A stretch of DNA of 64,000 bases from a virus, in IMG/VR virus record IMGVR_UViG_3300045988_171958, positions 192,001 to 256,000 of that record. One strand, given 5' to 3'. Numbering within the stretch: the first letter of the stretch is position 1; each line of letters starts with the position of its first letter. The notes under the pieces are model-generated. The model was not told where the DNA came from, ran no database searches, and was given only the letters and a program-made list of their open reading frames with translations. Below, in pieces: positions 11,257-54,580 of this stretch. Both the position numbers and the translations under genes were made by a program.

Positions 11257-11330
11257 GTAAATTATTTATGTTTTTATAAAAATAATGTATAAGTACTATT
11301 TTTAATTATAAATCTATATAATGCTTATAA

Positions 11331-37244: not shown

Positions 37245-40200
37245 TTATTTCAAAACAAATTTGTAATGAATTTTATATAGCTTGTCAGAATTAAGTGAAT
37301 TCAACTTCATCGGTGTTGACGTCACTTTATAATCATACCTGTTGAATAAAAATAATTTTTGATCTTCATTCATATCATCAATCAACGTACCCCTGTTCAA
37401 CATTAAGAATATTGCATAGGCTTGTTCTTCAGTTGATCTATTGACAACTTCATTATAAGAGTATAGCTTATTAGTAGACCATTCTAATGTATCATCACAA
37501 TATACAATTGCAGAATCATTAAAATGCTTTTGTTCCAACAGCTTTATTCTTATTTCTTGTCCATTCTTATCTTTCTTTCTATTGTTGTAATCTTTTATGA
37601 CATTATTTTTTGATGGTACATATATTGGTGTTGAATTTCTCATATCCAACTGTAACGATGTTTTATATATTACACTATCACCTATAGATGGATATTTTCC
37701 AGTTTCTACAATTCTGTTAGTATTCTCTATTGTATCTTTGAATTTCAACAGCCATTGATCAGATACAGAAGTTACTCTGTTTATTAATGGTACTATGTTC
37801 CCAAAATATCTGTTATATTGCAGATATGTGTTTGACTTAGCTATAGTTACATCAGTTTCTGATACTTCTACATTAGGGTCATCAACAGTACAGTTAGATT
37901 CTTTATATCTCATTATAAATCTAAAGTTTGATGGCTTAGTTATCGTAATCAATCTGTCAAATATTACAGATGGTTGCACTTTAAAGAATGGAAGCATTTG
38001 TTTGAACACTTTGAATATGTAATCCTTTCTCACATTTATATCAACTCCATTAACATATTTTATAAGTTTTATCTTATTGTCATAAGTATATGTAGGAATA
38101 TCCGGAACATTTGATATATTATATTGAGCTATCACATTGAATGTACTTGTTGTATTGTCAGCATCTATATTTATTATCCAAAAACCATAGTTTGTTCCAT
38201 CTTTCTTTATTGTACCGAAATTTTCAATTCCATATCCTAAATCATCATACCTAAAGTTATCTAACTGAACATTCACACTATCATAATTTGAATATATTAT
38301 TGGGTCTCCATAAAGTTTTTTCAAATTATTTACAGTTTGCTCATTTATCTCTATCATCCAATTTACATTGTTTGTATTGTATCTGTATAGGTACCAAGTA
38401 TCACCCTTTTTATTTACTTTAGTCTTCATTAAGTCATTAAGCAAATAATGAGCATATATTATTGTATCTTCTTTTTCTTGAGCATATATGTCGTTGAATA
38501 ATGGGATAAGTACATGACCAACTGGATCACATTCTTCTACTTTGGTCTGAACATTATAGGATATCTTATATTCAGAAGACAACATATTTCTTTCCCACTC
38601 ATCCGTCTTCTCTAATCTATATAGATAGATATCTCTGTATTCAGAACTGTCATCCTTTTCTATTTTCATTACTTTATCATAGATGGTATCATCAAGTCTA
38701 GTAACATTTATGCTAAATACTATTTCATAAGAATTCACATCAAAGTCATCTTCATCACTATGGCGGAACTTCCATATTCCATTTCCTTTATATTCTATTC
38801 TGTCATAGAAATAGTTGAATATTCTATAAGGGTTGTCAACTTTTTTACCTGAAATAGTTATCTGCTCTTCCATTCCATGAATGTTCTTCAACTTGGTATA
38901 TGCATCTACTATCTGTATCTTATCATCAGAATCATTGGCCATAATTCTTTGCTTTACATACAAATAATCATACCAATTTTCTATTATATCAACCGGATAG
39001 TCATAATTATAGTCTTTACACAATTCATTATACCACCAATAAAGATGTTCTTTATTCAAGAACTTAGCCTTCATTCTTTTTATATAAGACAATCTTTCTT
39101 GAACCTTATCTTCTGATATGCCACTTTTTAACAATACTCTTCTGAAATTGTATACATCACACCATATTACATCAATATCCTTATCCTTATCTTCATCATT
39201 CATTGTATCTCCATAAAAGTTCAATTCTGGATCTTTCTTTATGAATATGTTTGTTGCACATACTTCATTATCACCATATACTACTGGCATGAATGTATAT
39301 TTTGACTTAGAAGAGAGATGTTTTGTAAGATAATAACTAGTGTCTTTATATATGTTTTTCAATGCCATTCTGAAATTGTAAGCAGGTTTTCCTACAACAT
39401 TGAAATATGTTAAATCATAATTGTCTGCTTTTGAATTGCTTTTCAATCCAGTAAGATAGTAATAAGCTATCTGGTCGGTATCAGTAGCATCCAGCATCTT
39501 AATCCATTTTTCATTGAAGAATTCACCTTCTCTATATAAGTTGAATCCATATTGTGTATTTATTAGGGATGATGGTTGCAACAATATGTATGAGTAACTG
39601 AAACCTTCTCTTCTATGAGATTCTATGTTTTCTTCAGGAATATAATAAGTGAACCCTACTTGATTTCTTATTTTCTTATCATTCTTAGAGGATATGCAAA
39701 TCTGCTTTACCATTGGATCTTGCCATATATCAAAATCAGTATACTGATACCAGTAGTAACTGTAAGGATTTTCCTTTTCTATAGAATATGTAGAAGTACT
39801 TCCAGTAATGTAATTCTCTAATGTATATGATAAGAATTTCTTGTTTGGATCAGTTATCAGATCATAAGTTGATATATCATATCCAGGAGCAAAAACATAA
39901 GATTGGTAATTCTTTCCATTTACAAAATCATCATTGTATGGATCTATAGGTGAACTTCCATTATGAACTTTGATACCATATTTGTAAGAAACATAGCTAA
40001 GTGGACCACCAATCTTAATGTATGACAAATAAGATGAAGTGTCATCCACCATCATCTTCAATATGTGGATTGGGAGCATTTCATAGGAACTTGCTTTATA
40101 AGTGTTGATAATATCATCTATAGAATCAGAAGTAGTCAACTTATATATATTTTCACTTTTAAATAAATTGAATGCATCATTGAAAGTAGTATTTGCAATT

Positions 40201-42167
40201 TCATGATTATATGAGAAATGAGCATAAGACAATTCATAAGATAATACATTTTCTAATTCTCTTATTGTATCATCATAATTATACCAGCTATTTATGTCAT
40301 CCATTGTAAACCCATAATCATTAATGTTCACATACCATTTTGAATATGAATATGAATTGTTAGGATCTATCTTTATGAATGTATCATTTAACGACATTAC
40401 TGCATTCTTTTCACTATCTGATGGATTTGTTGAAGTAAATGCTTCACAAGAAGCTTTAGCAATAGCATCACTATATAGCATTGAAGGCATGATTACAGTA
40501 TTGAACTTACAATTAGTTTCAAACTGGCTAGCCATGCTTGTAGATACAGTATAGTTAGCATGCTTCATGACATCATTAGCTACTGAAGTCTTTACAGAGA
40601 ATCTTGGATTTACAAATACCCCAAACTTATCTATTTTTTCATTATCTTTAGTAAGTGCTTTATATATATGAGCAAGATTATGTAGAATGCCATTATAATA
40701 GCATTCATCATTCATTACATTTTCCCAATGAGCACTATCTATCCAAGAACTATCATTTTCTGATATCTTACATAAGCTAAACCAATTATAACCATACTTA
40801 TTCATTATGTTTTCATAATTAGTTGTTATGTTTGAATATCTGTCATTATATTTGTCAATATCTTTTCCTAAAGGAAATATGAGTGAATAATCTTCTGCTA
40901 CAGATGATTTGCCAGATGATACTGTTTCACATATTCCTGAAACAGTATATGATGGTGTAGGAAATTCTCTATATAAGAGATTAGAATACTGGTTGTCGGA
41001 AAATGCAAAAGCAAGATTTATGATGTATGGATTTTCATCTGATGATGCTTGTAACTTCCATCTAGAATACATTTTGCTTATCTTATTAGACAAAGAATAT
41101 TTTTGCATTCTTGCTTCATGTAAGCTAGGATATTTGCTGTCCATTATATTTGGAACATTTCCAGGTATGTAGTTCATCAATCCGGTATTCTTATCCATTC
41201 TAAGGATACTCTGATTTAGTGTATCATAGTCACAACTCCAATCATACCAAGATATTCTGTTTCCATTTGATATGTAATATCCAGATACTTCAACTTGTGC
41301 ACCTTTATATAATGTTTTCTCTGATTGGTCAAGTACTTTATCTAAATCAATACTGAAACACAATGGCAATACTTGTTTCATTGCAATATTCTTTCTTTTG
41401 AATTGTAATCCTAAAGAAAGATCAAAAAGATTTATAGTTGACATAGAGGATAGCATGTTACCTATTTCATTAGATATCGCGGTAGCTATGCCACCATGGT
41501 TCAAATCAATTCCATTGTATGTTGCATTTTTATTGTCAGCTGAAATATTTGCTACTTTAGAATCAATACAAGATTTATAAGAATCAAGATAATGGAATAG
41601 ATAGTTTCTCTTATCTTTTGAGTGATCCATTATATTGACTTTCATTCTCTTATACAGTTTTTTGTCTTTGTTGATGAATATCATATCTATAATGAATGCA
41701 TCAGGTAAGTCATTTGGATCATCTACATATATAGGTGCAAAAAATTCAAATTTATGGTTATTCTTCACATTCAATACTCTACTGCAACCCATTTCCAAAT
41801 CTATGTTTCTATCATAAATTGGATTTAACTTATCAAAATTCTGAACATTGGTTTCATCAAAAGACATTCCATTACTGAAGAAAACATTATTGTAATATTT
41901 ATAGTATTCTTTCAGGTCATAAGAGTAGTTTGAAGATAGAAGATTAGCTTCTATTTTCTTATCATATATTGTATGAGACAATGGAGACAGCACAGCACCT
42001 CTTACAAAGCAATCATATACATCATATTCTTTATCTGTTGATTTGATATAATCTGATGTTGTGCAAACTATTTTGACATTTCCACTATATGTAGGAATGA
42101 CTCTTATTAATGGCTTTATCATTAAAGTAGGACAATATTTGTTTTTCTGATATTTAAAAATTGACAA
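37245..42167 (-). CDS. giant protein (1640 aa), presumed virion (baseplate/fiber) component
   Basis: Uninterrupted 4.9 kb ORF. The annotated start is TTG (MSI.., like the MSI.. start of the downstream giant gene). The first ATG would be at 42122. Confidence 0.55.
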   Translation of the reverse strand: MSIFKYQKNKYCPTLMIKPLIRVIPTYSGNVKIVCTTSDYIKSTDKEYDVYDCFVRGAVLSPLSHTIYDKKIEANLLSSNYSYDLKEYYKYYNNVFFSNGMSFDETNVQNFDKLNPIYDRNIDLEMGCSRVLNVKNNHKFEFFAPIYVDDPNDLPDAFIIDMIFINKDKKLYKRMKVNIMDHSKDKRNYLFHYLDSYKSCIDSKVANISADNKNATYNGIDLNHGGIATAISNEIGNMLSSMSTINLFDLSLGLQFKRKNIAMKQVLPLCFSIDLDKVLDQSEKTLYKGAQVEVSGYYISNGNRISWYDWSCDYDTLNQSILRMDKNTGLMNYIPGNVPNIMDSKYPSLHEARMQKYSLSNKISKMYSRWKLQASSDENPYIINLAFAFSDNQYSNLLYREFPTPSYTVSGICETVSSGKSSVAEDYSLIFPLGKDIDKYNDRYSNITTNYENIMNKYGYNWFSLCKISENDSSWIDSAHWENVMNDECYYNGILHNLAHIYKALTKDNEKIDKFGVFVNPRFSVKTSVANDVMKHANYTVSTSMASQFETNCKFNTVIMPSMLYSDAIAKASCEAFTSTNPSDSEKNAVMSLNDTFIKIDPNNSYSYSKWYVNINDYGFTMDDINSWYNYDDTIRELENVLSYELSYAHFSYNHEIANTTFNDAFNLFKSENIYKLTTSDSIDDIINTYKASSYEMLPIHILKMMVDDTSSYLSYIKIGGPLSYVSYKYGIKVHNGSSPIDPYNDDFVNGKNYQSYVFAPGYDISTYDLITDPNKKFLSYTLENYITGSTSTYSIEKENPYSYYWYQYTDFDIWQDPMVKQICISSKNDKKIRNQVGFTYYIPEENIESHRREGFSYSYILLQPSSLINTQYGFNLYREGEFFNEKWIKMLDATDTDQIAYYYLTGLKSNSKADNYDLTYFNVVGKPAYNFRMALKNIYKDTSYYLTKHLSSKSKYTFMPVVYGDNEVCATNIFIKKDPELNFYGDTMNDEDKDKDIDVIWCDVYNFRRVLLKSGISEDKVQERLSYIKRMKAKFLNKEHLYWWYNELCKDYNYDYPVDIIENWYDYLYVKQRIMANDSDDKIQIVDAYTKLKNIHGMEEQITISGKKVDNPYRIFNYFYDRIEYKGNGIWKFRHSDEDDFDVNSYEIVFSINVTRLDDTIYDKVMKIEKDDSSEYRDIYLYRLEKTDEWERNMLSSEYKISYNVQTKVEECDPVGHVLIPLFNDIYAQEKEDTIIYAHYLLNDLMKTKVNKKGDTWYLYRYNTNNVNWMIEINEQTVNNLKKLYGDPIIYSNYDSVNVQLDNFRYDDLGYGIENFGTIKKDGTNYGFWIINIDADNTTSTFNVIAQYNISNVPDIPTYTYDNKIKLIKYVNGVDINVRKDYIFKVFKQMLPFFKVQPSVIFDRLITITKPSNFRFIMRYKESNCTVDDPNVEVSETDVTIAKSNTYLQYNRYFGNIVPLINRVTSVSDQWLLKFKDTIENTNRIVETGKYPSIGDSVIYKTSLQLDMRNSTPIYVPSKNNVIKDYNNRKKDKNGQEIRIKLLEQKHFNDSAIVYCDDTLEWSTNKLYSYNEVVNRSTEEQAYAIFLMLNRGTLIDDMNEDQKLFLFNRYDYKVTSTPMKLNSLNSDKLYKIHYKFVLK

Positions 42168-42676: not shown

Positions 42677-42749
42677 GGGTAAATAGCTCCAATGGTAGAG
42701 CACTAGATTGAAGATCTAGGTGTTGTTGGTTCGAATCCATCTTTACCCA
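42677..42749 (+). tRNA. tRNA-Phe (GAA)
   Basis: Hand-folded: acceptor gggtaaa/tttaccc, anticodon stem ctaga/tctag, loop ttGAAga, T-loop ttcgaat. Confidence 0.85.
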
Positions 42750-42761
42750 CAAAAATTATTT

Positions 42762-42835
42762 GGTTCTATAGCTCAGATGAATAGAGCAGGATTCTTCTAA
42801 AATCCGGGTCATGGGTTTGAATCCCATTGGAACCA
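42762..42835 (+). tRNA. tRNA-Arg (TCT)
   Basis: Acceptor ggttcta/tggaacc, D arm gctc..gagc, anticodon stem ggatt/aatcc, loop ctTCTaa. Confidence 0.85.
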
Positions 42836-42865
42836 CTAATTAAGTTCTTTGAAATATTTATTTAA

Positions 42866-42951
42866 GTTCCATTAGCTCAGTTGGTTCCGTAAGGCTAGAG
42901 AGCATCCGACTTTTAATCGGAGGGTCACGGGTTCGAGCCCCGTATGGAACA
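42866..42951 (+). tRNA. tRNA-Lys (TTT) with enlarged 21-nt D-loop
   Basis: Acceptor gttccat/atggaac, anticodon stem tccga/tcgga, loop ctTTTaa, T-loop ttcgagc, genomic CCA follows. The D-loop agttggt[tccgtaaggc]taga carries about 10 extra nt. Confidence 0.8.
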
Positions 42952-43276
42952 CCATGGTAGTCAAGAGATCTCTGCTGAGAATGAATAAAGAATGAGAAGC
43001 TCATCATCATTAACATCTGGATAATCAACAGATTTATGTGAATACCTCTGTTGGTCGTATGTAAGAGGTTTAATTTGGACAAGACCAAGAATTACATAGA
43101 CAACTTTGCATGGGCACCGGAAAAAGATCGAGAGATAATTAATGATGAATAACAAAGTTATTTAAACAAACCGTCCTAATTTGTTTGGTAACAGGTTGTT
43201 ATTGTTGAATCATATCATTGAAGTAGCTAATCAATTGAAGAAGGGAACAGCAATTGAAATACCAAATCCCTTGTAT

Positions 43277-43361
43277 GGAAGTATGGGTGAGTGGTTTAAA
43301 CCAGCACACTGCTAACGTGCCGAACCTAAAGGTTCCGAAGGTTCGAATCCTTCTGCTTCCG
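43277..43361 (+). tRNA. tRNA-Ser (GCT)
   Basis: Acceptor ggaagta/tgcttcc, loop ctGCTaa, long variable arm cgaacctaaaggttccg, T arm gaagg-ttcgaat-ccttc. Confidence 0.8.
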
Positions 43362-43377
43362 CGAGAAATTTATGATT

Positions 43378-43465
43378 GGAAGTTTGGTAGAGTTGGTTTA
43401 ATACATCAGTCTTGAAAACTGACGAACTGTAAAAAGTTCCGCAGGTTCGAATCCTGCAGCTTCCG
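43378..43465 (+). tRNA. tRNA-Ser (TGA)
   Basis: Acceptor ggaagtt/agcttcc, anticodon stem tcagt/actga, loop ctTGAaa, long variable arm, T arm gcagg-ttcgaat-cctgc. Confidence 0.85.
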
Positions 43466-43480
43466 CAAATGTATATATAA

Positions 43481-43551
43481 CTGCCATTGTCCGAGTGGTT
43501 AGGTGTAGGTCCGCAAAATCTACAACATTGGTTCGAATCCAATATGGCAGT
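43481..43551 (+). tRNA. tRNA-Cys (GCA)
   Basis: Acceptor ctgccat/atggcag, anticodon stem taggt/atcta, loop ccGCAaa (C33 is unusual), T arm attgg-ttcgaat-ccaat. The D arm is weak. Confidence 0.7.
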
Positions 43552-43558
43552 CATTACA

Positions 43559-43759
43559 TACAAGAACCAATAATGACATTGAAGTTCATTGAAAGAGATT
43601 GATACGTCGAGTGGACACCATATTCGCGATATAATGTTGCTCTCCTCAAATAGAAATATTAAGTGGATATATGCTGCAGTAAATATACCCAGTATAAGTT
43701 TTCTATGTTGTCTATAGATATCGATGGCTAAAAGGTCTATAGAAACTCTCGTTCTTGTA
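43559..43759 (+). ncRNA. candidate structured inter-tRNA RNA (between tRNA-Cys and tRNA-Val)
   Basis: 201-nt spacer closed by the 9-bp stem tacaagaac/gttcttgta. No ORF and no tRNA fold. Confidence 0.3.
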
Positions 43760-43763
43760 TTTT

Positions 43764-43838
43764 GGTTCAATAGCTCAGTTGGTTTAGAGCGTCTGTTTTA
43801 CAAGCAGAAGGTCCAAAGTTCGAATCTTTGTTGAACCA
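43764..43838 (+). tRNA. tRNA-Val (TAC)
   Basis: Acceptor ggttcaa/ttgaacc, D arm gctc..gagc, loop ttTACaa, T-loop ttcgaat. Confidence 0.85.
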
Positions 43839-43911
43839 CATAATAAACCGGAGAACTAGCAGTGCCGTGAGAATAAGATCCGATTGCAAAGTCAACCCGG
43901 TTATAGTATAT

Positions 43912-43984
43912 GCAGATGTAGCTCAATGGTTAGAGTGCTTCCTTGCCATGGAAGAAGTTGTGAGTTCGATCCTCATCATCTGCT
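43912..43984 (+). tRNA. tRNA-Gly (GCC)
   Basis: Acceptor gcagatg/catctgc, anticodon stem cttcc/ggaag, loop ttGCCat, T-loop ttcgatc. Confidence 0.85.
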
Positions 43985-43994
43985 CAATATATAT

Positions 43995-44072
43995 GCATCA
44001 GTGGTGTAGTTGGTGGTGCACATCTGGCTTCCAACCAGAAGGCTTTCGCGAGTTCGAATCTCGTCTGATGCT
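43995..44072 (+). tRNA. tRNA-Gly (TCC), 8-nt variable loop
   Basis: Acceptor gcatcag/ctgatgc, anticodon stem tctgg/ccaga, loop ctTCCaa, T arm gcgag-ttcgaat-ctcgt. Confidence 0.8.
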
Positions 44073-44079
44073 CTAATAT

Positions 44080-44167
44080 CTAGGTGTACTCTAATTGGTC
44101 AGAGCCTTGATTTGGGATCAAGTGGATACTGATAAAGTGGATGCAGGTTCGAGTCCTGTCACCTAGA
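44080..44167 (+). tRNA. tRNA-Pro (TGG) with 20-nt variable region
   Basis: Acceptor ctaggtg/cacctag, D arm ctct..agag, anticodon stem cttga/tcaag, loop ttTGGga, T arm gcagg-ttcgagt-cctgt. The variable region tggatactgataaagtggat contains a tggat direct repeat. Confidence 0.7.
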
Positions 44168-44173
44168 CTATAT

Positions 44174-44247
44174 ACACCGATCAGTCAATTGGTTTAGGCT
44201 AGCAGTCTCCAAAATTGCTAATATTGGTTCGATTCCAGTTCGGTGTG
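44174..44247 (+). tRNA. tRNA-Trp (CCA)
   Basis: Acceptor acaccga/tcggtgt, anticodon stem gcagt/attgc, loop ctCCAaa, T-loop ttcgatt, genomic CCA follows. Confidence 0.85.
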
Positions 44248-44277
44248 CCAGTGTTTAATTTTAAATGTTGTTAATAT

Positions 44278-44682
44278 ATGAGTAACATGAGAAATAGAGC
44301 TTGGAGAAGAAAGAAGACTGAATCAAAATGGAATTCTCGTTGTAAGAAGTTCATGTTTGATAGTATTTTTAGAGATGGTGATAAAGAATATTCATTCAAC
44401 ATAAGTGAAGGTAATGGCAAGAAAATCAGACGTACAATAATGATTCCTAATTTGAGAAGACCAACTTCATGGAAAGAAATGAAGAAACTTGATCCGTGGG
44501 CTAGGTTTTTGAAGAATGGTTCTGGATATCGTACTTATATATCAGACCAGATGGATGCTAAGCGAAAAGTTAAGTTGCAACGTATCAACAACAAGAAACT
44601 TATCAATGAAGGAATTCAGGAATATGATGACATATATGATGAAACTTTAGAAGATAATTTCTATCTTAATAATGTAGCATAA
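44278..44682 (+). CDS. small highly basic protein embedded in the tRNA array
   Basis: The ATG ORF has an N-terminus MSNMRNRAWRRKKTESKWNSRCKK.. and lies between tRNA-Trp and tRNA-His. Confidence 0.55.
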   Translation: MSNMRNRAWRRKKTESKWNSRCKKFMFDSIFRDGDKEYSFNISEGNGKKIRRTIMIPNLRRPTSWKEMKKLDPWARFLKNGSGYRTYISDQMDAKRKVKLQRINNKKLINEGIQEYDDIYDETLEDNFYLNNVA

Positions 44683-44693
44683 ATTATGTACAT

Positions 44694-44766
44694 GGGTTCT
44701 TTCGTTCAATGGTAGGACAGGAGGTTGTGGTTCTCCTTATTAGAGTTCGATTCTCTAAGGAACCCC
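44694..44766 (+). tRNA. tRNA-His (GTG)
   Basis: Acceptor gggttct/ggaaccc, anticodon stem ggagg/tctcc, loop ttGTGgt, T-loop ttcgatt. Confidence 0.8.
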
Positions 44767-45149
44767 AAACGTGATCAGAATATACTGGTGATTGGACAAA
44801 AACAATGTAGCTGAGAAGAGTAATGCAATAATACGCGTAAATAATTGCATGAAACATATAATAAGCGCGGATGAAAAAAGCCTTACCTATGGCCGCCTCC
44901 CTACATTTGTATTTTGAATGTCAATGAAACAATAAGTATAAGGTTTGGTAACGCTTATTAAATTAATTGGTTCATTCAAGTTCACTATGCAGTCTGGGCT
45001 TTATAGAGCCTTGTAGTTTAAAGCATCGTAAAACATTCTGGTTATAAGAGAATATATCACCCAAGCGAATTGTCATGAGATTCGTACACCTGCTTAAGAT
45101 GGTTGAATTATGTGGGAAGTAATTCTATAAAATAGGGCATGCCCACAAT

Positions 45150-45223
45150 GGCGTAATAGCTCAGTTGATTAGAGCGCATCATTCATGCTGATGAGGTCGT
45201 TGGTTTGAGTCCATCTTACGCCA
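45150..45223 (+). tRNA. tRNA with CAT anticodon (Met or Ile2; identity not resolvable by eye)
   Basis: Acceptor ggcgtaa/ttacgcc, D arm gctc..gagc, anticodon stem catca/tgatg, loop ttCATgc. Confidence 0.8.
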
Positions 45224-45303
45224 CAGCTTAAACGGACCGAACTTAGTCTTTTATGCATCTTTTCTCTAGGGTAAGGTGTTAAACACCAAAAGAAAAGGCA
45301 CCA

Positions 45304-45386
45304 GGGAATATGCTGTAATTGGTAGCCAGGCCAGACTTAGGATCTGGTGCTTCAATAGCGTGTGGGTTCGAGTCCCACTATTCCCA
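45304..45386 (+). tRNA. tRNA-Leu (TAG)
   Basis: Acceptor gggaata/tattccc, anticodon stem ccaga/tctgg, loop ctTAGga, long variable arm, T arm gtggg-ttcgagt-cccac. Confidence 0.85.
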
Positions 45387-45649
45387 CAATCGTTGAAGTA
45401 ATGTAGTTTATGAAAGTCTAACATTAGTAATGGAAACCTAATGGCCCTCTATGTTATCCTAAAGAGAATAAAGTACGATTAGTAAATGAGTTATGGATCT
45501 GTTTAAACAGATCGCTTCAGAACTTCTAAAGAAGTCAGTAAGTTAGATGAAACCACCATAATATAATATCTGGATAACTATATGTATGGATAGGAATGAA
45601 GTTTTAGGTGCAGACACCGGTAGCGTCACCTTTTGTAATTCCTAGTATT

Positions 45650-45735
45650 GCTCCGATGTTGGAATTGGTAGACAAGATGGACTTAAAATCCATTGGTCAG
45701 TGATGACCGTACGGGTTCGATCCCCGTTCGGAGTA
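45650..45735 (+). tRNA. tRNA-Leu (TAA)
   Basis: Acceptor gctccga/tcggagt (G1.U72), anticodon stem atgga/tccat, loop ctTAAaa, variable arm tggtcagtgatgaccgt, T-loop ttcgatc. Confidence 0.8.
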
Positions 45736-45736
45736 C

Positions 45737-45904
45737 AAATTGATAGCAATCCTGAATAGAGAAGGAAGAAAGACGAGTTATGAAGGTAAGTATGCTTAAA
45801 GCTGCACGTATAATGCAGTGCATACCAAGGATAAATAACTAAAACACACCATATAAACTCTACACGAAGGTCTGATGCAGGAAGTGCGCACTTGCTATCA
45901 ATTT
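45737..45904 (+). ncRNA. candidate structured inter-tRNA RNA (between tRNA-Leu TAA and tRNA-Leu CAA)
   Basis: 168-nt spacer closed by the perfect 13-bp stem aaattgatagcaa/ttgctatcaattt. Nested inside are the helices gtatgc..gcatac and ctgca..tgcag. Confidence 0.35.
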
Positions 45905-45913
45905 ATTTTTATT

Positions 45914-45997
45914 GCTTTCATGGCGGAATTGGTAGACGCAACTGTCTCAAAAACAGCTGATAGAAATATCATGAAGGTTCGAGTCCTTCTGGAAGTA
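45914..45997 (+). tRNA. tRNA-Leu (CAA)
   Basis: Acceptor gctttca/tggaagt (with G.U pairs), loop ctCAAaa, variable arm tgatagaaatatcat, T arm gaagg-ttcgagt-ccttc. Confidence 0.75.
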
Positions 45998-46031
45998 CTT
46001 ATTATTCAATTAAACAATTATTTTATTTTAC

Positions 46032-47033
46032 ATGAGATTACCTTTGGTGCCACTTTCAGAATGGGTATTGAATAGACAGAATGAATTTGAATTAAAATTA
46101 TTTGAATCATTCAGACAAGAATTCAATATAAGAGACAATGAAGAATTTAATATTTGTGAAAGATATGGGTCTTATGATGGACAAATGAAATTCTGTAGAG
46201 ACTTTGCAACAATGTTGTCAGAAGACATACAAGACAATCTTAATATGACTGATTTTAGATATGACTTAAATAAAGAAGAAATTAAAGATTATTATAAAGG
46301 ATTGTTTTTTGACAATATTCACTTGATATGTAATACAATGTGTCAGACAGGATATCAAGCAAGAAAATCTGAATATAATCCAAAAACCCTTACATTTAAA
46401 GATGTATATATCTATATAAACATCAAGGAATACAATAAAGAAAAGGACATTACTGTTGCACTTACTCATGAGCTTACACATGCTTATGATGATTGGAACA
46501 GACACTCAAAAGAAGGAGTTGAAACATTACTTGATATTGAGAAAAACACAGGATATGATAAATTAATTGATAAGATAAAGTCAAGTGATTTCAATGAAAA
46601 GATTGCATCTGAAATGATTTATACATTCACTTCAGTAGAAAAGAATGCTTACATGTCAGAATTGACCGCTGAAATAGAAAGTATAGGGGAAAAAATCAAA
46701 GATTATACATATATGGATGCGTTAAAAATATTTAAGAATTCAGATACATGGAAAAGATTCAATCAATTCAAAGAATATTTTATGTTGATGAATAATGAAG
46801 AAAAGAAAGTATTGTGTGATGTATACAGAGAAATAAAGAAATCAAGCAATACAGACAATAAGATATTAAAACAATTGAAATATGATATACAAGAAACATT
46901 TGATAAGATGTGTACTATCATACCAAAGATTTACTATTATTACAAAGAAAAGTATTCAAATAAAGAAATAAAGAAAGAAAAAGTAAGTGAATCAAGATTA
47001 AATAGAATAAAGAAAAGATTTAACATAATTTAA
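46032..47033 (+). CDS. hypothetical HExxH protein embedded in the tRNA array
   Basis: The ATG ORF contains a zinc-metallopeptidase-like HELTH motif (ALTHELTHAYDDW). Confidence 0.55.
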   Translation: MRLPLVPLSEWVLNRQNEFELKLFESFRQEFNIRDNEEFNICERYGSYDGQMKFCRDFATMLSEDIQDNLNMTDFRYDLNKEEIKDYYKGLFFDNIHLICNTMCQTGYQARKSEYNPKTLTFKDVYIYINIKEYNKEKDITVALTHELTHAYDDWNRHSKEGVETLLDIEKNTGYDKLIDKIKSSDFNEKIASEMIYTFTSVEKNAYMSELTAEIESIGEKIKDYTYMDALKIFKNSDTWKRFNQFKEYFMLMNNEEKKVLCDVYREIKKSSNTDNKILKQLKYDIQETFDKMCTIIPKIYYYYKEKYSNKEIKKEKVSESRLNRIKKRFNII

Positions 47034-47096
47034 CTAAATAATATTGTCCACTTTACTATTTATATATTATATTTAAATGAATAAATGAATAAAACA

Positions 47097-47210
47097 ATGA
47101 GAACTATCACAAATACATATTATCAAATAATTGATGAACAGGCCATTGATAATCAACGAATGGTTTGCTCTTGTTTTGGTATATGTGAAAGTGATGAGAT
47201 TGACTTTTAA
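47097..47210 (+). CDS. possible small protein (37 aa, MRTITNTYYQIIDEQ..CSCFGICESDEIDF)
   Basis: Short ATG ORF not in the track, followed by a hairpin/T-run at 47254-47286. Confidence 0.25.
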   Translation: MRTITNTYYQIIDEQAIDNQRMVCSCFGICESDEIDF

Positions 47211-47253
47211 ATACGTCCTCCACTGTTTAAACATTCAACAATACAATCAAGAC

Positions 47254-47286
47254 AAGAGCAATACAGAAATGTGTTGCTCTTTGTTG
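47254..47286 (+). terminator. hairpin + T-rich tail
   Basis: aagagcaa-tacagaaatgtg-ttgctctt followed by tgttg. Confidence 0.4.
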
Positions 47287-47358
47287 ATTTAGCTTCAGCT
47301 GTACTGAAGCATGAAGTACTAAAAAAGTTGATAAAAAATGAAAATTTTTTGAAAGATC

Positions 47359-47390
47359 TTTGAAATACTGATAAATCAAATCTATATTAT
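47359..47390 (+). promoter_or_regulatory. promoter-like box
   Basis: tttgaaatactgataaatcaaatctatattat upstream of 47435 and the second tRNA sub-cluster. Confidence 0.45.
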
Positions 47391-47434
47391 ATATGTAAGT
47401 TATATAAAATATCACATTTAAAATTATAATTATT

Positions 47435-47656
47435 ATGACAAGATTAGAATCAAACATTAAGATATTGAATATTATAAAGCAACTTGCCTATATGTTTCCA
47501 GATATGAGATTCATTCAGTTGCTTACAACTGTTGATGCAATTCTTGGTACTGATCAGTTCTATGAGGAATCGGAAGTTACATTGAATAGAATCAAAGAGA
47601 AAATTGAATATCAACAAAGAAGATATGGTAAGTTGACTGATATTGATATTAATTAG
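47435..47656 (+). CDS. hypothetical protein (73 aa)
   Basis: ATG ORF downstream of a promoter-like box within the tRNA region. Confidence 0.5.
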   Translation: MTRLESNIKILNIIKQLAYMFPDMRFIQLLTTVDAILGTDQFYEESEVTLNRIKEKIEYQQRRYGKLTDIDIN

Positions 47657-47666
47657 ATAATATAAA

Positions 47667-47741
47667 TGGCGCGTTCGACAAGTGGCCTAAGTCGCCAGTT
47701 TTTCACGCTGGTATTCACCGGTTCGAATCCGGTACGCGCTA
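47667..47741 (+). tRNA. tRNA-Glu (TTC)
   Basis: Acceptor ggcgcgt/acgcgct, anticodon stem ccagt/gctgg, loop ttTTCac, T arm accgg-ttcgaat-ccggt. Confidence 0.8.
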
Positions 47742-47752
47742 CGATAAATATT

Positions 47753-47835
47753 GGGTAGATAGATAAGTGGTTAAAATGGTTTGACTGTAAATCAAATGGC
47801 TTCGGCCTTCGGGAGTTCGAATCTCTCTCTGCCCA
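47753..47835 (+). tRNA. tRNA-Tyr (GTA)
   Basis: Acceptor gggtaga/tctgccc, anticodon stem tttga/tcaaa, loop ctGTAaa, long variable arm (bacterial type II Tyr), T-loop ttcgaat. Confidence 0.85.
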
Positions 47836-47984
47836 CCGGGTCAAAAGAGCAAATGATAATCATGACAAAGTGATGTGTGAACAATTTAGATATAATCAAC
47901 GCTTTACGTTGCTTGCAACTAAAGTTATTGTGAAAGCCACATAGGAGATTGATGTGCAGCTAACTGAGACTTTAATCAGTATTT

Positions 47985-48061
47985 GGAGTATTAAGCCCTG
48001 TTGGTAAGGGAACTAGACTGTCACTCTAGTAAAACTAAGGGTTCGAGTCCCTTATGCTCCG
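47985..48061 (+). tRNA. tRNA-Asp (GTC)
   Basis: Acceptor ggagtat/atgctcc, anticodon stem ctaga/tctag, loop ctGTCac, T arm aaggg-ttcgagt-ccctt. Confidence 0.85.
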
Positions 48062-48070
48062 CAAATAGAT

Positions 48071-48142
48071 TGGACTATGGTGTAACTGGAAACACTACAG
48101 ATTTTGGTTCTGTCATTCGGAGTTCGAACCTCCGTGGTCCAA
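48071..48142 (+). tRNA. tRNA-Gln (TTG)
   Basis: Acceptor tggacta/tggtcca (U1-A72, as in bacterial tRNA-Gln), anticodon stem acaga/tctgt, loop ttTTGgt, T arm cggag-ttcgaac-ctccg. Confidence 0.85.
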
Positions 48143-48148
48143 CAATTT

Positions 48149-48259
48149 AGGTGGTTATATCAGTTGGTTAACTTAGTTCTTGAACAGAACATAAGTGATG
48201 TTCATTAGATAGCTTGCCTGATAAGCAAGAGGTCATAGGTTCAAGTCCTATATCACCTA
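48149..48259 (+). tRNA. tRNA-Ile (GAT) interrupted by a 36-nt insertion in the D-loop
   Basis: Acceptor aggtggt/atcacct, D stem tatc/gata, canonical D-loop agttggttaa followed by a 36-nt insert, anticodon stem cttgc/gcaag, loop ctGATaa, T arm atagg-ttcaagt-cctat. Removing the insert restores a normal 75-nt tRNA. Confidence 0.7.
48169..48207 (+). repeat. about 40-nt mini-element, copy inside the tRNA-Ile(GAT) D-loop
   Basis: taacttagttcttgaacagaac-ataagt-gatgttcatta. Confidence 0.75.
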
Positions 48260-48267
48260 CAAGATTC

Positions 48268-48300
48268 TTTGAAATTTTGGATATAGTTATTCTATATTTA
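48268..48300 (+). promoter_or_regulatory. promoter-like box inside the tRNA array
   Basis: tttgaaattttggatatagttattctatattta upstream of tRNA-Ile(TAT) and the endonuclease gene. Confidence 0.5.
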
Positions 48301-48312
48301 ATATAAATAAAT

Positions 48313-48386
48313 ACTCCAGTAACTCAGTTGGTTAGAGTGCTCGGCTTATACCCAAGTGGTCGGGGGTTCAAGTCCCTCCTGGAGTA
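48313..48386 (+). tRNA. tRNA-Ile (TAT)
   Basis: Acceptor actccag/ctggagt, D arm actc..gagt, anticodon stem ctcgg/ccaag (one C-A mismatch), loop ctTATac, T arm cgggg-ttcaagt-ccctc. Confidence 0.7.
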
Positions 48387-48397
48387 CTATTAAATGT

Positions 48398-49021
48398 ATG
48401 GATTTAATAAAAAGTTATGCAAGTAAATGTTGTACAGGGCAAAAGAAAATAGCTTATTGTGTAGATTGTGGGAAAGAACTTATAATTTATAAAAGAGCTT
48501 CTTCAAAAACTTGTAGATGTGATAATTGCAGAAAAAACCGCATTAGACAAAAAAGACTACAATATAGATTAAATTTTTTAAATAATGATTATGAAATTCA
48601 TTTTGGTAGAAAATATTCAAAAGAAAGCTGGCTAGCATTACATAATGGTGGTTGTAAAGGAATACAACATCAAGGTGATTTAAGACGTAGTAAAAATGAA
48701 ATAGAATTTTGTAAATTATGTGAAGAATATTTTAATAATGTTAAACATAATGAATGTATATTTAATGGATGGGATGCAGATATAATAATAGAAGATATAA
48801 AATTCGCGGTATTATGGAATGGTCCATGGCATTATAAACAAATTACGAAATCTCATTCAGTTAAGCAAATACAAAATAGGGATAAAATAAAGATAAAAGA
48901 AATTAAAGAATCTGGTTGGACACCTTATATTATAAAAGATATGGGTAAGGCAAATAAAGATTTTGTTAAAGAAAAATTTGATGAATTCTTGAAATATTTA
49001 AAAGAAAATACTATTATTTAA
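48398..49021 (+). mobile_element. homing-endonuclease-like gene (zinc ribbon + Vsr/PD-(D/E)XK-like domain) inside the tRNA array
   Basis: I set the start at ATG 48398 because the track ORF start lies inside tRNA-Ile. Motifs are CVDCGK..CRCDNC and WDADIIIEDIKFAVLWNGPWHY. Confidence 0.6.
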
Positions 49022-49037
49022 ATAGTTAATTATATAT

Positions 49038-49119
49038 CGTGGGTGAGTGAAACGGATATTTATAAATCACGTCGGTCTCATAAGCCGTACAATAGTGGGT
49101 TCGACTCCCACACCCATCA
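49038..49119 (+). tRNA. second CAT-anticodon tRNA (Met/fMet/Ile2-like) with 16-nt D-loop and 1:72 mismatch
   Basis: Acceptor cgtgggt/acccatc (C1xC72), D stem gtga/tcac, loop ctCATaa, T arm gtggg-ttcgact-cccac. Confidence 0.6.
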
Positions 49120-49143
49120 CTAACAAAGAAATTCTAAACTTAA

Positions 49144-49216
49144 GGATCGATAGCTCAGTTGGTAGAGCAACTTGCTGTTAACAAGAAGGTCGTCAGTTCG
49201 AATCTGGCTCGGTCCG
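49144..49216 (+). tRNA. tRNA-Asn (GTT)
   Basis: Acceptor ggatcga/tcggtcc, D arm gctc..gagc, loop ctGTTaa, T-loop ttcgaat. Confidence 0.85.
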
Positions 49217-49413
49217 CAAACGGCAACGATTATTTAGAGGCGGCTTAACTGCTACTCGAATGTGATATGGGTTGGATAATCACCAACATGGTCAAGGACA
49301 TGCACACTTCTTGATATTGACGCGACAAAACAAGATGAAGCCTAATATTACGGTGAAAGTCGAACTCTTTCTTGAATTCATCCTCTTTGTCAATTGATAG
49401 AATCCTTGAATTT

Positions 49414-49488
49414 GGGGTCAATAGCTCAGTTGACTAGAGCACTTGATTTGCATTCAAAAGGTCCAGGGTTTGAATCCCTGTGGCTCCA
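49414..49488 (+). tRNA. tRNA-Ala (TGC)
   Basis: Acceptor ggggtca/tggctcc including the G3.U70 Ala identity pair, loop ttTGCat, T arm caggg-tttgaat-ccctg. Confidence 0.85.
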
Positions 49489-49630
49489 CAAGTAATAGAG
49501 AGGACCTAGCATTTAACTAGGTGGTTGTTAGAGGTGTCAGTGCAATCTACAGGTACTCCTGATAGCTCAATGTATTACGAGAATATGGTCATGATAGTTT
49601 GCACATCTGATGCCATATTTGATTTTATAT

Positions 49631-49703
49631 GCCATTATAGCTCAATTGGTAGAGCATCTGTCTTGTAAACAGAAGGTTATCGGATCATACCCGGTTAATG
49701 GCT
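49631..49703 (+). tRNA. tRNA-Thr (TGT), non-canonical T-loop
   Basis: Acceptor gccatta/taatggc, anticodon stem tctgt/acaga, loop ctTGTaa, T-loop atcatac (A54 instead of T54). Confidence 0.75.
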
Positions 49704-49726
49704 CAAATTATTTATGGAAAAGAAAA

Positions 49727-49748
49727 AGAGCATTCTTAAGAATGCTCT
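49727..49748. terminator. bidirectional terminator at the end of the tRNA array
   Basis: aaaaagagcattcTTAAgaatgctcttt sits between tRNA-Thr (+) and 49759-50616 (-). Confidence 0.7.
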
Positions 49749-49758
49749 TTATTTGTAT

Positions 49759-51781: not shown

Positions 51782-54580
51782 TTAGTTGAATTGCCTGAAT
51801 CTAGCTCTCAATGGATCTTGGTTATATTGTCCAGGCATATCATATATGCTTGGTTCATTTCCATATCCATTAGGTGATCCATAGAAATCATTCATAGATG
51901 GCAATCCTTGTTGCATACCTGTATTGTACATTGTATACATGTTAGGTATACTGGTACTTGCATTACTTTGTGTTTCTCTATATATACTAGAAGATTCTGC
52001 AGCAGCAGTAGGTAAATTTCTGTTATCCAATGATACTGTTATCTGTTTCTCTTCTTTCTTCTTTTGCAATACATTAGACATCATATCTGCTATCTTCTTA
52101 AGCATATCTAGTTTCTTCATTTCTGATTCTTCCTTTTCTATTTGTTCCCATTGTCCAGTAGCTTTCATCTCTATCTCCCACTCTTCCATGAAATCTTTAT
52201 ATTTTGTAGTATTCTTAAGAAGTGGAAGTTGTACAAAAGTCATTATCAAATCATCATGGCCGTATGCAGCAGCATAACTGCCATTTCCATTCTTATCTTC
52301 AAAATTCTCAAGCTCTGAAACAGTAAGCAAGTCTGTTATTATGACATCAAACTTCTCTAACATCATCTTAAGCAATGCACATGCAGATATCTTAGTAGCA
52401 TGACTCAATCTGATACCTGGAATTGTCTTGCTGTTTTTGAATCCATTCAAATTAGCAATATTGTCTTCTTGACTGCCTTTCTTGTATCTTATCAAATTAG
52501 CCAAGTCAAATTCACCTAATGGATTTACTTGCCATCTCCAACTTGCCTCTGGCATATATTCAGGTTCATTCAAATTCTTAAGATAGTTGTAGAATAAAGC
52601 ACCATAAGTATTCCATTCTACTGACACTATAGTCTTATTAGGATTGAATAACTGTCCATACAATACCCAGAACTCTAAGCTAGCTTGTTCCAAATCTATA
52701 GTATTGCAATGCCAATATCCTATTTGTTCAAACTTATCTTTTCCTATTACTTCTATTATGTTGAATGTTGTAAAGTCATTACCACCACCTTCTGCTAAGT
52801 CAACTAATATGATGAACCATCCAATCTTCAAATAATGCAAGTCATAATCTTTCTTGAACTTAAATTCTGTCTTATGTAAGCTGAAATACCAACTATCATC
52901 TGTAGGTGTCTCAAACAAGTAAGTCAAGTCTCTTATCTTTCCTAAGCATTCTCTTGATACAAGACATTTATCAGATGCAGAGAATTGTGTACCATATTGA
53001 TAGTAGAAAGCTTCTTCTGAACCTAAGACACCAACCATCATAGCTTTCCAAGCATTATCTCTCTTCTTCCAAATATGATTGTCAGGATCCCATTGAGGAA
53101 CTTGCCACCAATCTACTTTAAATGGAGCATACATAGACTTTCCTGTTTCTGCGGCATGCCATAGCTTATAGAACAAATTGAATCCATTTTGTGTTGACAT
53201 GATACATATATTAGAGCTTGTATCTGCAGTAACAGTAGGAAGAATGTTGTTGTAGAACAATTCAACATCATTAGGTGGACACCAAGCAAACTCATCAAGT
53301 ATCAAGAAGTTTATTGTCTTACCAAGACCGGCAGTAGGAGAGAAAGCTTCAGTAGATATTGTAGAGTTGTTGTCAAAAGCTATCTCTGACTGATTCCACT
53401 TCAAAGTACCAAGCTTCAGATGGTAAGGAAGATACAGATACATATCTTTTATCTTCTTTATCAAATCTTGTCCTGCTGGACCAGACTTAGAAAGTATCAA
53501 TGCATTTCTATCATTTCTGAACAATACTGACCAAAGACAGAATATTGCTGTAGTTGTTGAGTTGTGACTCAATATTCCATTAGTATAATATCTGTGATAA
53601 GGATGTTCTACTGAAACATCACACATAGATACTTTTGTTTTAGATACTGAAACAGACTTTACCATAGATGGTCCTCTATCTGTCATTATTTTAGATAGGT
53701 TTTCAACAAGTTTATCAGCATATATTATATCTAAGTTTTCATCAAACAACATGTGTTTGTCTGCACATTCTATAGAATACCCATTTTCAAGGATTACCTT
53801 ATATATTGCAAATGGCTTAGTATTGTAAATGTATGATATTGGTTGATATCCAACATCTGTCAATACTTTTATCCTATATTCAGAAATATCTATTTCTTTA
53901 GTGGTTTTACAGTTATCTAAAAGTTCCTTATGAAATACAAAATTGTATTCTAACCAATCAACAACTTCTACTGCTTTATAGTTTTCTTTTTTATATAGAT
54001 AATATTTCAGTTTCCAGAAAGCAGAGTTATCAAACAAGTTTTGAAATTCATAAAAAGGCAATTCAAACAAATAGTCAGATCCACTTTTTACATATTTGAA
54101 ATTCTTAAAAAGATATGTGAATTTTTGTTTACCAAACTGAATACCATAATTGTTTATGAATGCATTAGTAAACAAAAACTTCACCGTTGTATTTTGTAAA
54201 AGGCACTTTCCACTTTGTCTGCAACTTAAAAACAGGCTGAATCTGTTTTGTTGAAGATGTCTCATGTAATCTTCCTGATAGTCACGGAGTATTACTGGTT
54301 GCAAACCAGTTGGGGTCATAAGATAGCATTTGGTAGCAAAGTACAATGGATCTTCCATACAATGCATATAATCTTCTATCTCTTCTTGTGTACGCTTGAA
54401 GACCAGATCTGGCTTCAATAACTTAGTATTCTTACCAATAAAAGGGTTTGCTTTCAATGGCAAACCCTTCTTCATAGCATCTACAGCTTTCTCAAGTACT
54501 GAACAGCTCCAGATAACTGCTTCTGCCTCTTTTCCTCCTTTATCTCTCTTTACTGGATCAAATTCAAATTCTTTAGCCAT
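51782..54580 (-). CDS. terminase large subunit (T4 gp17-like) interrupted by an intein
   Basis: The Walker A motif is split as ..LSCRQSGK / intein / STTTAIF... Downstream ATPase and nuclease regions (FLILDEFAW, ..) are present. Confidence 0.85.
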   Translation of the reverse strand: MAKEFEFDPVKRDKGGKEAEAVIWSCSVLEKAVDAMKKGLPLKANPFIGKNTKLLKPDLVFKRTQEEIEDYMHCMEDPLYFATKCYLMTPTGLQPVILRDYQEDYMRHLQQNRFSLFLSCRQSGKCLLQNTTVKFLFTNAFINNYGIQFGKQKFTYLFKNFKYVKSGSDYLFELPFYEFQNLFDNSAFWKLKYYLYKKENYKAVEVVDWLEYNFVFHKELLDNCKTTKEIDISEYRIKVLTDVGYQPISYIYNTKPFAIYKVILENGYSIECADKHMLFDENLDIIYADKLVENLSKIMTDRGPSMVKSVSVSKTKVSMCDVSVEHPYHRYYTNGILSHNSTTTAIFCLWSVLFRNDRNALILSKSGPAGQDLIKKIKDMYLYLPYHLKLGTLKWNQSEIAFDNNSTISTEAFSPTAGLGKTINFLILDEFAWCPPNDVELFYNNILPTVTADTSSNICIMSTQNGFNLFYKLWHAAETGKSMYAPFKVDWWQVPQWDPDNHIWKKRDNAWKAMMVGVLGSEEAFYYQYGTQFSASDKCLVSRECLGKIRDLTYLFETPTDDSWYFSLHKTEFKFKKDYDLHYLKIGWFIILVDLAEGGGNDFTTFNIIEVIGKDKFEQIGYWHCNTIDLEQASLEFWVLYGQLFNPNKTIVSVEWNTYGALFYNYLKNLNEPEYMPEASWRWQVNPLGEFDLANLIRYKKGSQEDNIANLNGFKNSKTIPGIRLSHATKISACALLKMMLEKFDVIITDLLTVSELENFEDKNGNGSYAAAYGHDDLIMTFVQLPLLKNTTKYKDFMEEWEIEMKATGQWEQIEKEESEMKKLDMLKKIADMMSNVLQKKKEEKQITVSLDNRNLPTAAAESSSIYRETQSNASTSIPNMYTMYNTGMQQGLPSMNDFYGSPNGYGNEPSIYDMPGQYNQDPLRARFRQFN
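53561..54205 (-). mobile_element. intein (215 aa) inserted in the TerL Walker A motif
   Basis: It starts with Cys right after SGK (CLLQNTTV), has a block B-like GYSIECADKHMLF, a block F/G-like VSMCDVSVEHPYHRYYTNGILSHN, and is followed by Ser+1. Excision restores RQSGKSTTT. Confidence 0.8.

Follow-up and report, generated by a model that had tools for sequence, protein, structure and literature searches.

A stem-closed candidate RNA module in the Leu-Leu spacer of a tRNA operon from a clade of human-gut jumbo phages

A 168-nt element (positions 45737-45904) fills the spacer between the genes for tRNA-Leu(TAA) and tRNA-Leu(CAA) in the 64,000-nucleotide stretch of viral DNA analysed here (the window). 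This element is probably a structured non-coding RNA module that is restricted to one clade and represents an undescribed family, and it is carried in the tRNA operon of a human-gut jumbo phage of ~290 kb. Judged from sequence comparisons, it appears to be a real non-coding RNA module, structured and confined to a single clade of jumbo phages that are prevalent in the gut. Its kind is already known, in the form of small RNAs embedded in phage tRNA operons, and its family is new. The original prediction had offered three readings of the spacer, namely a small RNA like species 1 and 2 of phage T4, an RNase III processing module and a MITE-like insertion, and of these a small structured RNA is the best supported.

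The phage, known from human-gut samples and not cultured, is a common jumbo phage with a genome of roughly 290 kb. An ORF of 333 aa just downstream of the element (46032-47033), which has no clear family, was used as the query to reach relatives of the window. A protein of identical sequence occurs in 175 blocks of the assembly collection, and for this reason we regard the phage clade as common. Among the matches listed, contigs with the exact protein are 216-296 kb long and come from the human gut wherever record names give a source. When cultured phages were searched with blastn, the tRNAs were the sole matches and nothing close was found. A large terminase of the T4 type is encoded on the minus strand at 51782-54580, with a best match of 32% identity in an uncultured 462-kb phage. 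At 932 aa this protein is unusually long for a T4-type terminase, and residues 218-292 give a weak match to an intein splicing domain (E = 0.0022, below the Pfam cut-off); because of its length and this match, the terminase may contain an intein or another insert. Also on the minus strand, a 1640-aa ORF adjoining the tRNA operon (37245-42167) has 0 matches in Pfam and 0 in PHROG.

The operon comprises 25 tRNA genes (42677-49704), all on the plus strand, and the element has the same orientation as all of them. On its upstream side, tRNA-Leu(TAA) was placed on the plus strand at 45650-45735/6 by ARAGORN and at 45650-45735 by the Rfam tRNA model (53.8 bits). The acceptor stem of this tRNA ends at 45734 and is followed by the discriminator A45735; CCA is not encoded, and the 3′ side reads ...TCGGAGT-A-C, then AAATTG. 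In all haplotypes the element begins one base (C45736) past the discriminator, which corresponds to an offset of 0-1 nt from the 3′ end of the tRNA. Downstream, a T-rich linker of 9 nt on the same strand (ATTTTTATT, 45905-45913; ATTTTATT in haplotypes B′ and C) leads from the element to tRNA-Leu(CAA), which was identified by both ARAGORN and Rfam at 45914-45998 on the plus strand. Most tRNAs in the operon are spaced by 5-15 nt without a comparable closing stem. Terminator-like sites are present in the window at 47254-47281 and 49725-49750, and no promoter or terminator consensus was found inside the element.

Comparison of the operon of the window (42677-49704) with those of L001, L002, L004, L005, L009, L034, L049 and L057, from genomes that are 91-99% identical, reveals a mosaic in which gains and losses of whole tRNAs, and of segments that bear ORFs, coincide exactly with tRNA boundaries. 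The tRNAs concerned are Gly-GCC, Gly-TCC, Pro, Ser-GCT, Leu-CAA and an extra Met, and the tRNA-Leu(TAG) allele of L001 and L002 has an identity of only 78.6%. The 79-nt spacer between tRNA-Met and tRNA-Leu(TAG) (45225-45303) carries a hairpin, CTTTTCT...AGAAAAG, and then GCACCA, which resembles an acceptor 3′ end with CCA; L002, L034 and L057 have a 6-nt gap in place of this spacer. In L007, a more distant relative, ARAGORN also calls a tRNA of the cluster whose anticodon has four bases (ttat; 5480-5552), and in L034 it calls one whose anticodon has two (11204-11275). Both of these tRNAs could be of a frameshift type or degenerate.

The two ends of the element pair with each other to form a closing helix, P1, in which the 5′ arm AAATTGATAGCAA (45737-45749) and the 3′ arm TTGCTATCAATTT (45892-45904), both given on the plus strand, are 100% complementary and are separated by 142 nt. 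This perfect 13-bp stem, present just as originally described, did not arise in any of 2000 shuffled versions of the spacer. The nested helices described with it are also present, with GTATGC (45790-45795) and GCATAC (45820-45825) enclosing CTGCA (45802-45806), cgtataa and TGCAG (45814-45818). Neither ARAGORN nor Rfam RF00005 gives a tRNA fold in the element, in agreement with the earlier description. The region was also rightly called less AT-rich, as its G+C content is 0.40-0.42 (150-nt windows) compared with 0.32 for the whole window, and the non-tRNA stretches neighbouring the element have values of 0.16-0.30. The claim that there is no ORF needs amending, in that an ATG frame of 20 codons lies at 45780-45842; the region nevertheless is not coding, because the length of this frame differs between haplotypes (20, 9 or 17 codons). 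A coding reading of the minus strand was rejected, the 46-aa ORF there overlapping a tRNA. The minimum free energy is -37.7 kcal/mol for the plus strand (z = -2.7) and -40.9 kcal/mol for the minus strand (z = -3.5).

A consensus fold computed with RNAalifold on 10 haplotypes consists of the 13-bp P1, a 9-nt bulge, a 5-bp P2, three weak central helices and an apical P6/P7 hairpin, and all of its parts are given here on the plus strand. In P2, TCCTG (45750-45754) pairs with CAGGA (45878-45882); this helix is missing from the single-sequence fold and was recognised only after its covariation had been seen. The purine-rich 5′ strand of the central region (AATAGAGAAGGAAGAAAGACGAGTTATGAAGGTAA, 45755-45789) is nearly invariant and is mostly unpaired or engaged in the weak helices P3-P5, and the A/C-rich 3′ strand (45826-45877) holds the nearly invariant block CCATATAAACTCTACAC-GAAGGTCTGATG. 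The apical hairpin (45790-45825) is formed by P6 (GTATGC/GCATAC), a 5-nt bulge, TTAAA, and P7 (GCTGCA/TGCAGT), and is capped by a variable loop that reads CGTATAA, TAAA or GGTAAA.

Mostly within the bulge between P2 and P1 lies a 12-nt palindrome, AAGTGCGCACTT (45882-45893), whose core AGTGCGCAC (45883-45891) constitutes the 9-nt bulge. The palindrome changes symmetrically to AAGTACGTACTT in haplotype C, where pairing of the two changed bases within one hairpin is impossible. Such a symmetric change could mark a site of RNA-RNA dimerisation or a DNA site for a dimeric protein, or it could be a template-switch mutation.

The substitutions that distinguish the haplotypes support the predicted folding of the plus strand as RNA. 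Standard pairs account for 99.3% of 430 pair cells, compared with 30-44% after displacement of the 3′ partners by 1-3 columns. Changes on both sides affect nine cells, a number reached in 0 of 500 shuffles, and the count of pairs with a change on both sides among the 10 sequences is not significant (155 of 500 shuffles). Three pairs are compensated, including a G-C / G·U / A-U series. In P2, columns 16/145 change from C-G to U-A in four haplotypes. The same change affects columns 69/79 of P7, in which columns 67/81 and 70/78 undergo wobble changes. In P6, columns 58/85 are occupied by G-C (7), G·U (L077), A-U (L078) and A·C (L009), and U-A gives way to U·G at columns 57/86 (L076).

P6 and P7 were already predicted from the single sequence, and P6 had been named in the original prediction. 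In simulations that took the single-sequence minimum-free-energy pairs as the prior, a compensated double hit had a probability of P = 0.044 given the eight changes on the branch that separates A from B/C and of P = 0.0014 given the two changes of the L078 lineage; taken together, these two hits at pairs predicted a priori have a chance of about 6e-5. Because the haplotypes are closely related, no compensation represents more than one event. The closing stem, when checked in relatives that carry the element, proved to be conserved: P1 is invariant in 10 of 10 haplotypes, with variation in 0 of its 26 columns versus 26 of 143 columns elsewhere (Fisher p = 0.015). Because it never varies, P1 yields no covariation evidence, and none was found for P3-P5 among the 10 haplotypes. 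Two pairs are broken in L009, one of them in P3-P5.

The pattern also depends on the strand. There are 22 G·U cells, which become A·C on the other strand, and pairing accordingly falls from 99.3% on the plus strand to 94.4% on the minus strand. Since the G·U cells pair on the plus strand only, the fold appears to be selected on the strand that carries the tRNAs.

Searches with nhmmer located the element at 21 loci, representing 10 distinct haplotypes, always immediately 3′ of tRNA-Leu(TAA) and only in a tight clade of human-gut phage contigs of 216-296 kb. An intact tRNA-Leu(CAA) follows it in the window, L001, L044 and L049. In L009, L010, L034 and L057 this tRNA is truncated or absent and the element is kept, and in two of these four the 333-aa ORF is missing as well. 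Because the downstream content varies in this manner, the element is tied to the 3′ side of tRNA-Leu(TAA) and not to the downstream tRNA or ORF. A link to the 333-aa ORF was rejected, as L009 and L010 have the element without the ORF and L004 and L005 have the ORF without the element. After the element in L010 (553-580) there is a 20-nt remnant, GCTTACACAGTTAAGAGTAC, that corresponds to the first four and the last five bases of tRNA-Leu(CAA), and this sequence suggests that the tRNA may have been deleted internally while the element was retained.

In L002, whose DNA is ~92% identical, 262 nt corresponding to 45737-45998 are missing, comprising the element and tRNA-Leu(CAA), and the gap falls exactly between two tRNA ends of the form ...AGTAC. 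The element is also lacking in L004, where 11 nt separate the two leucine tRNAs (AATTTATCTAT) and the neighbouring protein has 86% identity, and in L005, where the neighbouring protein is 79% identical. Its absence from these three loci indicates that it is dispensable for the operon. Because two outgroups are without it, parsimony favours its gain in a recent ancestor of the clade, and the element is probably a recent gain, although a precise loss across the base of the hairpin explains its presence and absence too. The natural strains that lack it (L002 and L004) are ready-made controls.

Known families were not encountered. Rfam 15 produced 0 matches to 45730-45915 on both strands at E <= 10, and in the 8.5-kb tRNA region it matched tRNAs only, with YrlA hits of E ~ 2 that fall on tRNAs elsewhere. 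A blastn comparison of the element with 50,697 phage records (E <= 10) returned only chance matches of 19-32 nt, and a remote copy was not found when nhmmer and the covariance model R1 were applied to the relatives without the element. SRP/4.5S RNA, 6S RNA, Y-RNA-like RNA, T-box, hammerhead and HDV were considered as candidates and rejected, as there was no model match and the motifs checked by hand were missing. Apart from a 21-nt match at 49392-49412, the element shows no similarity to other long spacers. The search for antisense targets in the window gave complementary matches of 12-15 nt at best, with E values of at least 2.8.

We propose that the element is co-transcribed within the polycistronic tRNA precursor. 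By general tRNA processing, an endonuclease of the RNase Z type would cut the 3′ end of tRNA-Leu(TAA) after A45735, this type of 3′-end enzyme being proposed because no CCA is encoded, and a cut by RNase P at 45913/45914 would form the 5′ end of the tRNA that follows. The RNA freed by these two cuts would be about 178 nt long. P1 would clamp both of its ends, shielding it from exonucleases, and would also keep the inserted 142 nt folded on themselves, leaving the folding of the neighbouring tRNAs undisturbed. The module would most likely end up as a small RNA that is a stable by-product of processing.

A different possibility is that a MITE-like or small site-specific cassette was inserted into the short spacer between the two leucine tRNAs, and that its RNA fold is a functionless by-product of the inverted ends. 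On this reading the ends would be an 8-bp TIR (GATAGCAA/TTGCTATC) bordered by AATT, a palindrome duplicated over 4 bp. We consider such an insertion unlikely. Of the MITE-like insertion originally suggested, the inverted ends and the presence/absence pattern stand, whereas there is one copy per genome and none at another locus in IMG/VR or in 185,579 bacterial and archaeal species genomes. An insertion would agree with the lack of the element in L002 and L005 and with the greater parsimony of gain that the outgroups imply, and invariance of P1 is expected of ends that are bound by a transposase. In addition, the 11-nt gap of L004 (AATTTATCTAT) resembles the right end of the element in the window plus the linker (AATTT-ATTTTTATT), and a sequence like joined ends, TTGTC-AATT-GATAG-AATCCTTGAAT, is present at 49387-49412. 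However, the L004 spacer is too diverged for reliable alignment as an empty site, a precise deletion across the base of the hairpin gives the same pattern of presence and absence, and the AATT ‘duplication’ belongs to the palindrome or inverted repeat.

The copy number of the element also argues against insertion. No second copy was found within the 64-kb window with blastn, nhmmer or covariance model R1, no 13-mer enrichment was observed there, and related contigs of 244-283 kb have one match to the element each. A gapped pattern made of the two 10-nt ends matched, in IMG/VR, the orthologous locus in three related contigs and five unrelated sites by chance. When IMG/VR was scanned with exact blocks, four patterns led to three related contigs from one sample and a 17-mer gave 15 chance matches, and a metagenome scan with a 19-mer gave 4 true and 32 chance matches. 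In 185,579 bacterial and archaeal species genomes (GTDB), the 13+13 pattern and an internal 20-mer had 0 and 0 matches. Moreover, no transposase or recombinase was recognised nearby, and the compensated pairs and G·U intermediates in the internal helices are not predicted for a passive insert. MITEs and repeats of the Correia, ERIC and RUP types are like the element in their size of 100-200 bp, their TIRs, their hairpin-forming transcripts and their presence or absence between strains. These families are defined by many dispersed copies, whereas the element is a single copy at one locus only.

It is quite unlikely, although compatible with the preferred reading of a structured RNA module and not exclusive of it, that the element serves as an RNase III module in which a cut in the P1+P2 duplex separates the two halves of the tRNA precursor and the interior is discarded. 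The stems flanking 16S and 23S rRNA are RNase III processing sites. In the present case the two spacer ends form a composite helix of 18 bp, P1 is invariant, the element abuts both tRNAs, and a second spacer of the operon has a similar end-to-end stem. A typical bacterial RNase III substrate extends over about two helical turns, however, and an arrangement of 13 bp, a one-sided 9-nt bulge and 5 bp is shorter and more interrupted than that. Nor would processing by RNase III account for selection on the P6/P7 hairpin at the apex, which lies 45 nt away from this helix. Furthermore, most tRNAs in the operon, 5-15 nt apart, do without such a stem, and relatives that lack the element keep both tRNAs.

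The element could instead be neutral spacer DNA in which local inverted duplication or quasi-palindrome correction produced the inverted repeat and the hairpins while selection did not act on the RNA, but we judge this very unlikely. Its substitution rate equals that of the neighbouring spacer, and higher conservation than in the flank was not found (90-96% for the element versus 91-98% for the unstructured spacer at 45388-45649). Independent events are few, and the symmetric change of AAGTGCGCACTT, which cannot pair intramolecularly, looks like template switching. Compensation in short-range hairpins can also be produced by quasi-palindrome template switching in DNA. The compensation in P2, however, is long-range, acting between positions 127 nt apart, and the G·U intermediates are strand-specific. 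Neutrality is also difficult to reconcile with the joint chance of about 6e-5 for the a-priori compensated hits and with the 13-bp terminal stem, which shuffling failed to reproduce.

We attach little credence to the idea that the element is an active RNA and not a passive by-product. The observations are compatible with two versions of this idea, one being an undescribed self-cleaving or RNase P-guiding element that sets the 3′ end of tRNA-Leu(TAA) and would match theta ribozymes in function but have a new fold, the other a regulatory RNA that is released by processing and pairs with its own copy via the palindromic bulge (GUGCGCAC/GUACGUAC). An active RNA would fit the fixed one-base offset, the lack of variation in P1 and in the unpaired blocks, and the symmetric change of the palindrome. 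The symmetric covariation of the palindrome resembles that of retroviral dimerisation sites.

Theta ribozymes are HDV-like RNAs that neighbour tRNAs in gut phages and are proposed to process their 3′ trailers (PMC10879173). Like theta ribozymes, the element immediately follows a phage tRNA in human-gut Caudoviricetes, the fixed offset of 0-1 nt from the tRNA 3′ end holds in all haplotypes, and the element has long invariant unpaired blocks, yet it is extremely improbable that the element is an analogous self-cleaving RNA that generates the 3′ end of tRNA-Leu(TAA). The element alone matches no ribozyme family of Rfam 15 at E <= 10, the HDV-type covariance models of that release included. In an HDV-like fold, which is a nested double pseudoknot, P1 begins at the cleavage site and its 3′ strand is succeeded by P4 and the 3′ strand of P2. 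HDV-like topology is excluded for the element because its nucleotides 1-13 pair with its very last 13 nt, which are separated from the next tRNA by only 9 nt. The element is also about three times longer than theta ribozymes, its CUGAUGC lacks the hammerhead A9, and the 24 other tRNAs of the operon manage without such an element.

The closest parallels to a structured RNA module of this kind are found in T4. The T4 RNAs C (species 1) and D (species 2) are stable non-coding RNAs of 119-139 nt whose role is unknown (PMC3014915, PMC9697503). The T4 rnaD and rnaC genes follow tRNA-Arg with a 1-nt gap, and like the element they belong to a phage tRNA cluster, share the orientation of its tRNAs and start 1 nt past one of them; the T4-type large terminase of the window phage adds to this likeness. 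Of the resemblance to species 1 and 2 that was originally proposed, the plus-strand fold under selection and the similar placement are borne out, whereas homology and a T-arm are not. A search of the T4 locus (L067) with covariance model R1 gave no hit, and T4 rnaC has a tRNA-like T-arm (CCGGGTTCGAATCCCGG), whereas the element has no T-arm of the GGTTCGA type. In addition, the element is closed by its 13-bp end-to-end helix and lies between two tRNAs, whereas the T4 RNAs are at the end of their cluster.

A functional RNA is also derived from the tRNA precursor glyW-cysT-leuZ of E. coli, whose 3′ETS acts as a sponge for RyhB and RybB (PMC6191717). Both this RNA and the element are non-tRNA parts of a polycistronic tRNA transcript, and release of the element by processing is predicted. 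The 3′ETS is an external 3′ spacer that ends in a terminator and base-pairs with Hfq-bound sRNAs, whereas the element is a longer, stem-closed internal spacer with no notable antisense match in the window.

A second stem-closed module occupies the 211-nt spacer between tRNA-Cys and tRNA-Val (43553-43763). Its perfect 10-bp stem is formed by ATACAAGAAC (43558-43567) and GTTCTTGTAT (43751-43760), with p about 5e-4. This spacer is 96-100% identical among relatives, L002 included, and has a consensus fold of several hairpins in which one U-A / U·G / C-G series occurs; it has no sequence similarity to the element in the leucine spacer. Because the stem-closed layout is shared, the tRNA-Cys–tRNA-Val spacer suggests that stem-closed spacer RNAs may be a recurring feature of this tRNA operon, which, going by sequence, would hold at least two structured spacer RNAs of this form in a common phage clade. 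If the spacer RNAs accumulate during infection, the decades-old observation of T4 RNA C and RNA D would be extended to uncultured gut jumbo phages, and the spacer RNAs would offer a compact candidate, supported by covariation, with which to study the role of such RNAs in phage tRNA operons.

Elsewhere in the operon, the sequence TTGTCAATTGATAG-AATCCTTGAAT (49387-49412) stands directly 5′ of tRNA-Ala. Aligned with the first 21 nt of the element, it shows 19 identities and 2 gaps (z = 4.5 against shuffles), and it looks like the ends of the element joined at AATT, plus the next 11 nt. This sequence is conserved in L001 and L010, and the corresponding spacer differs in L002, which is also without the element.
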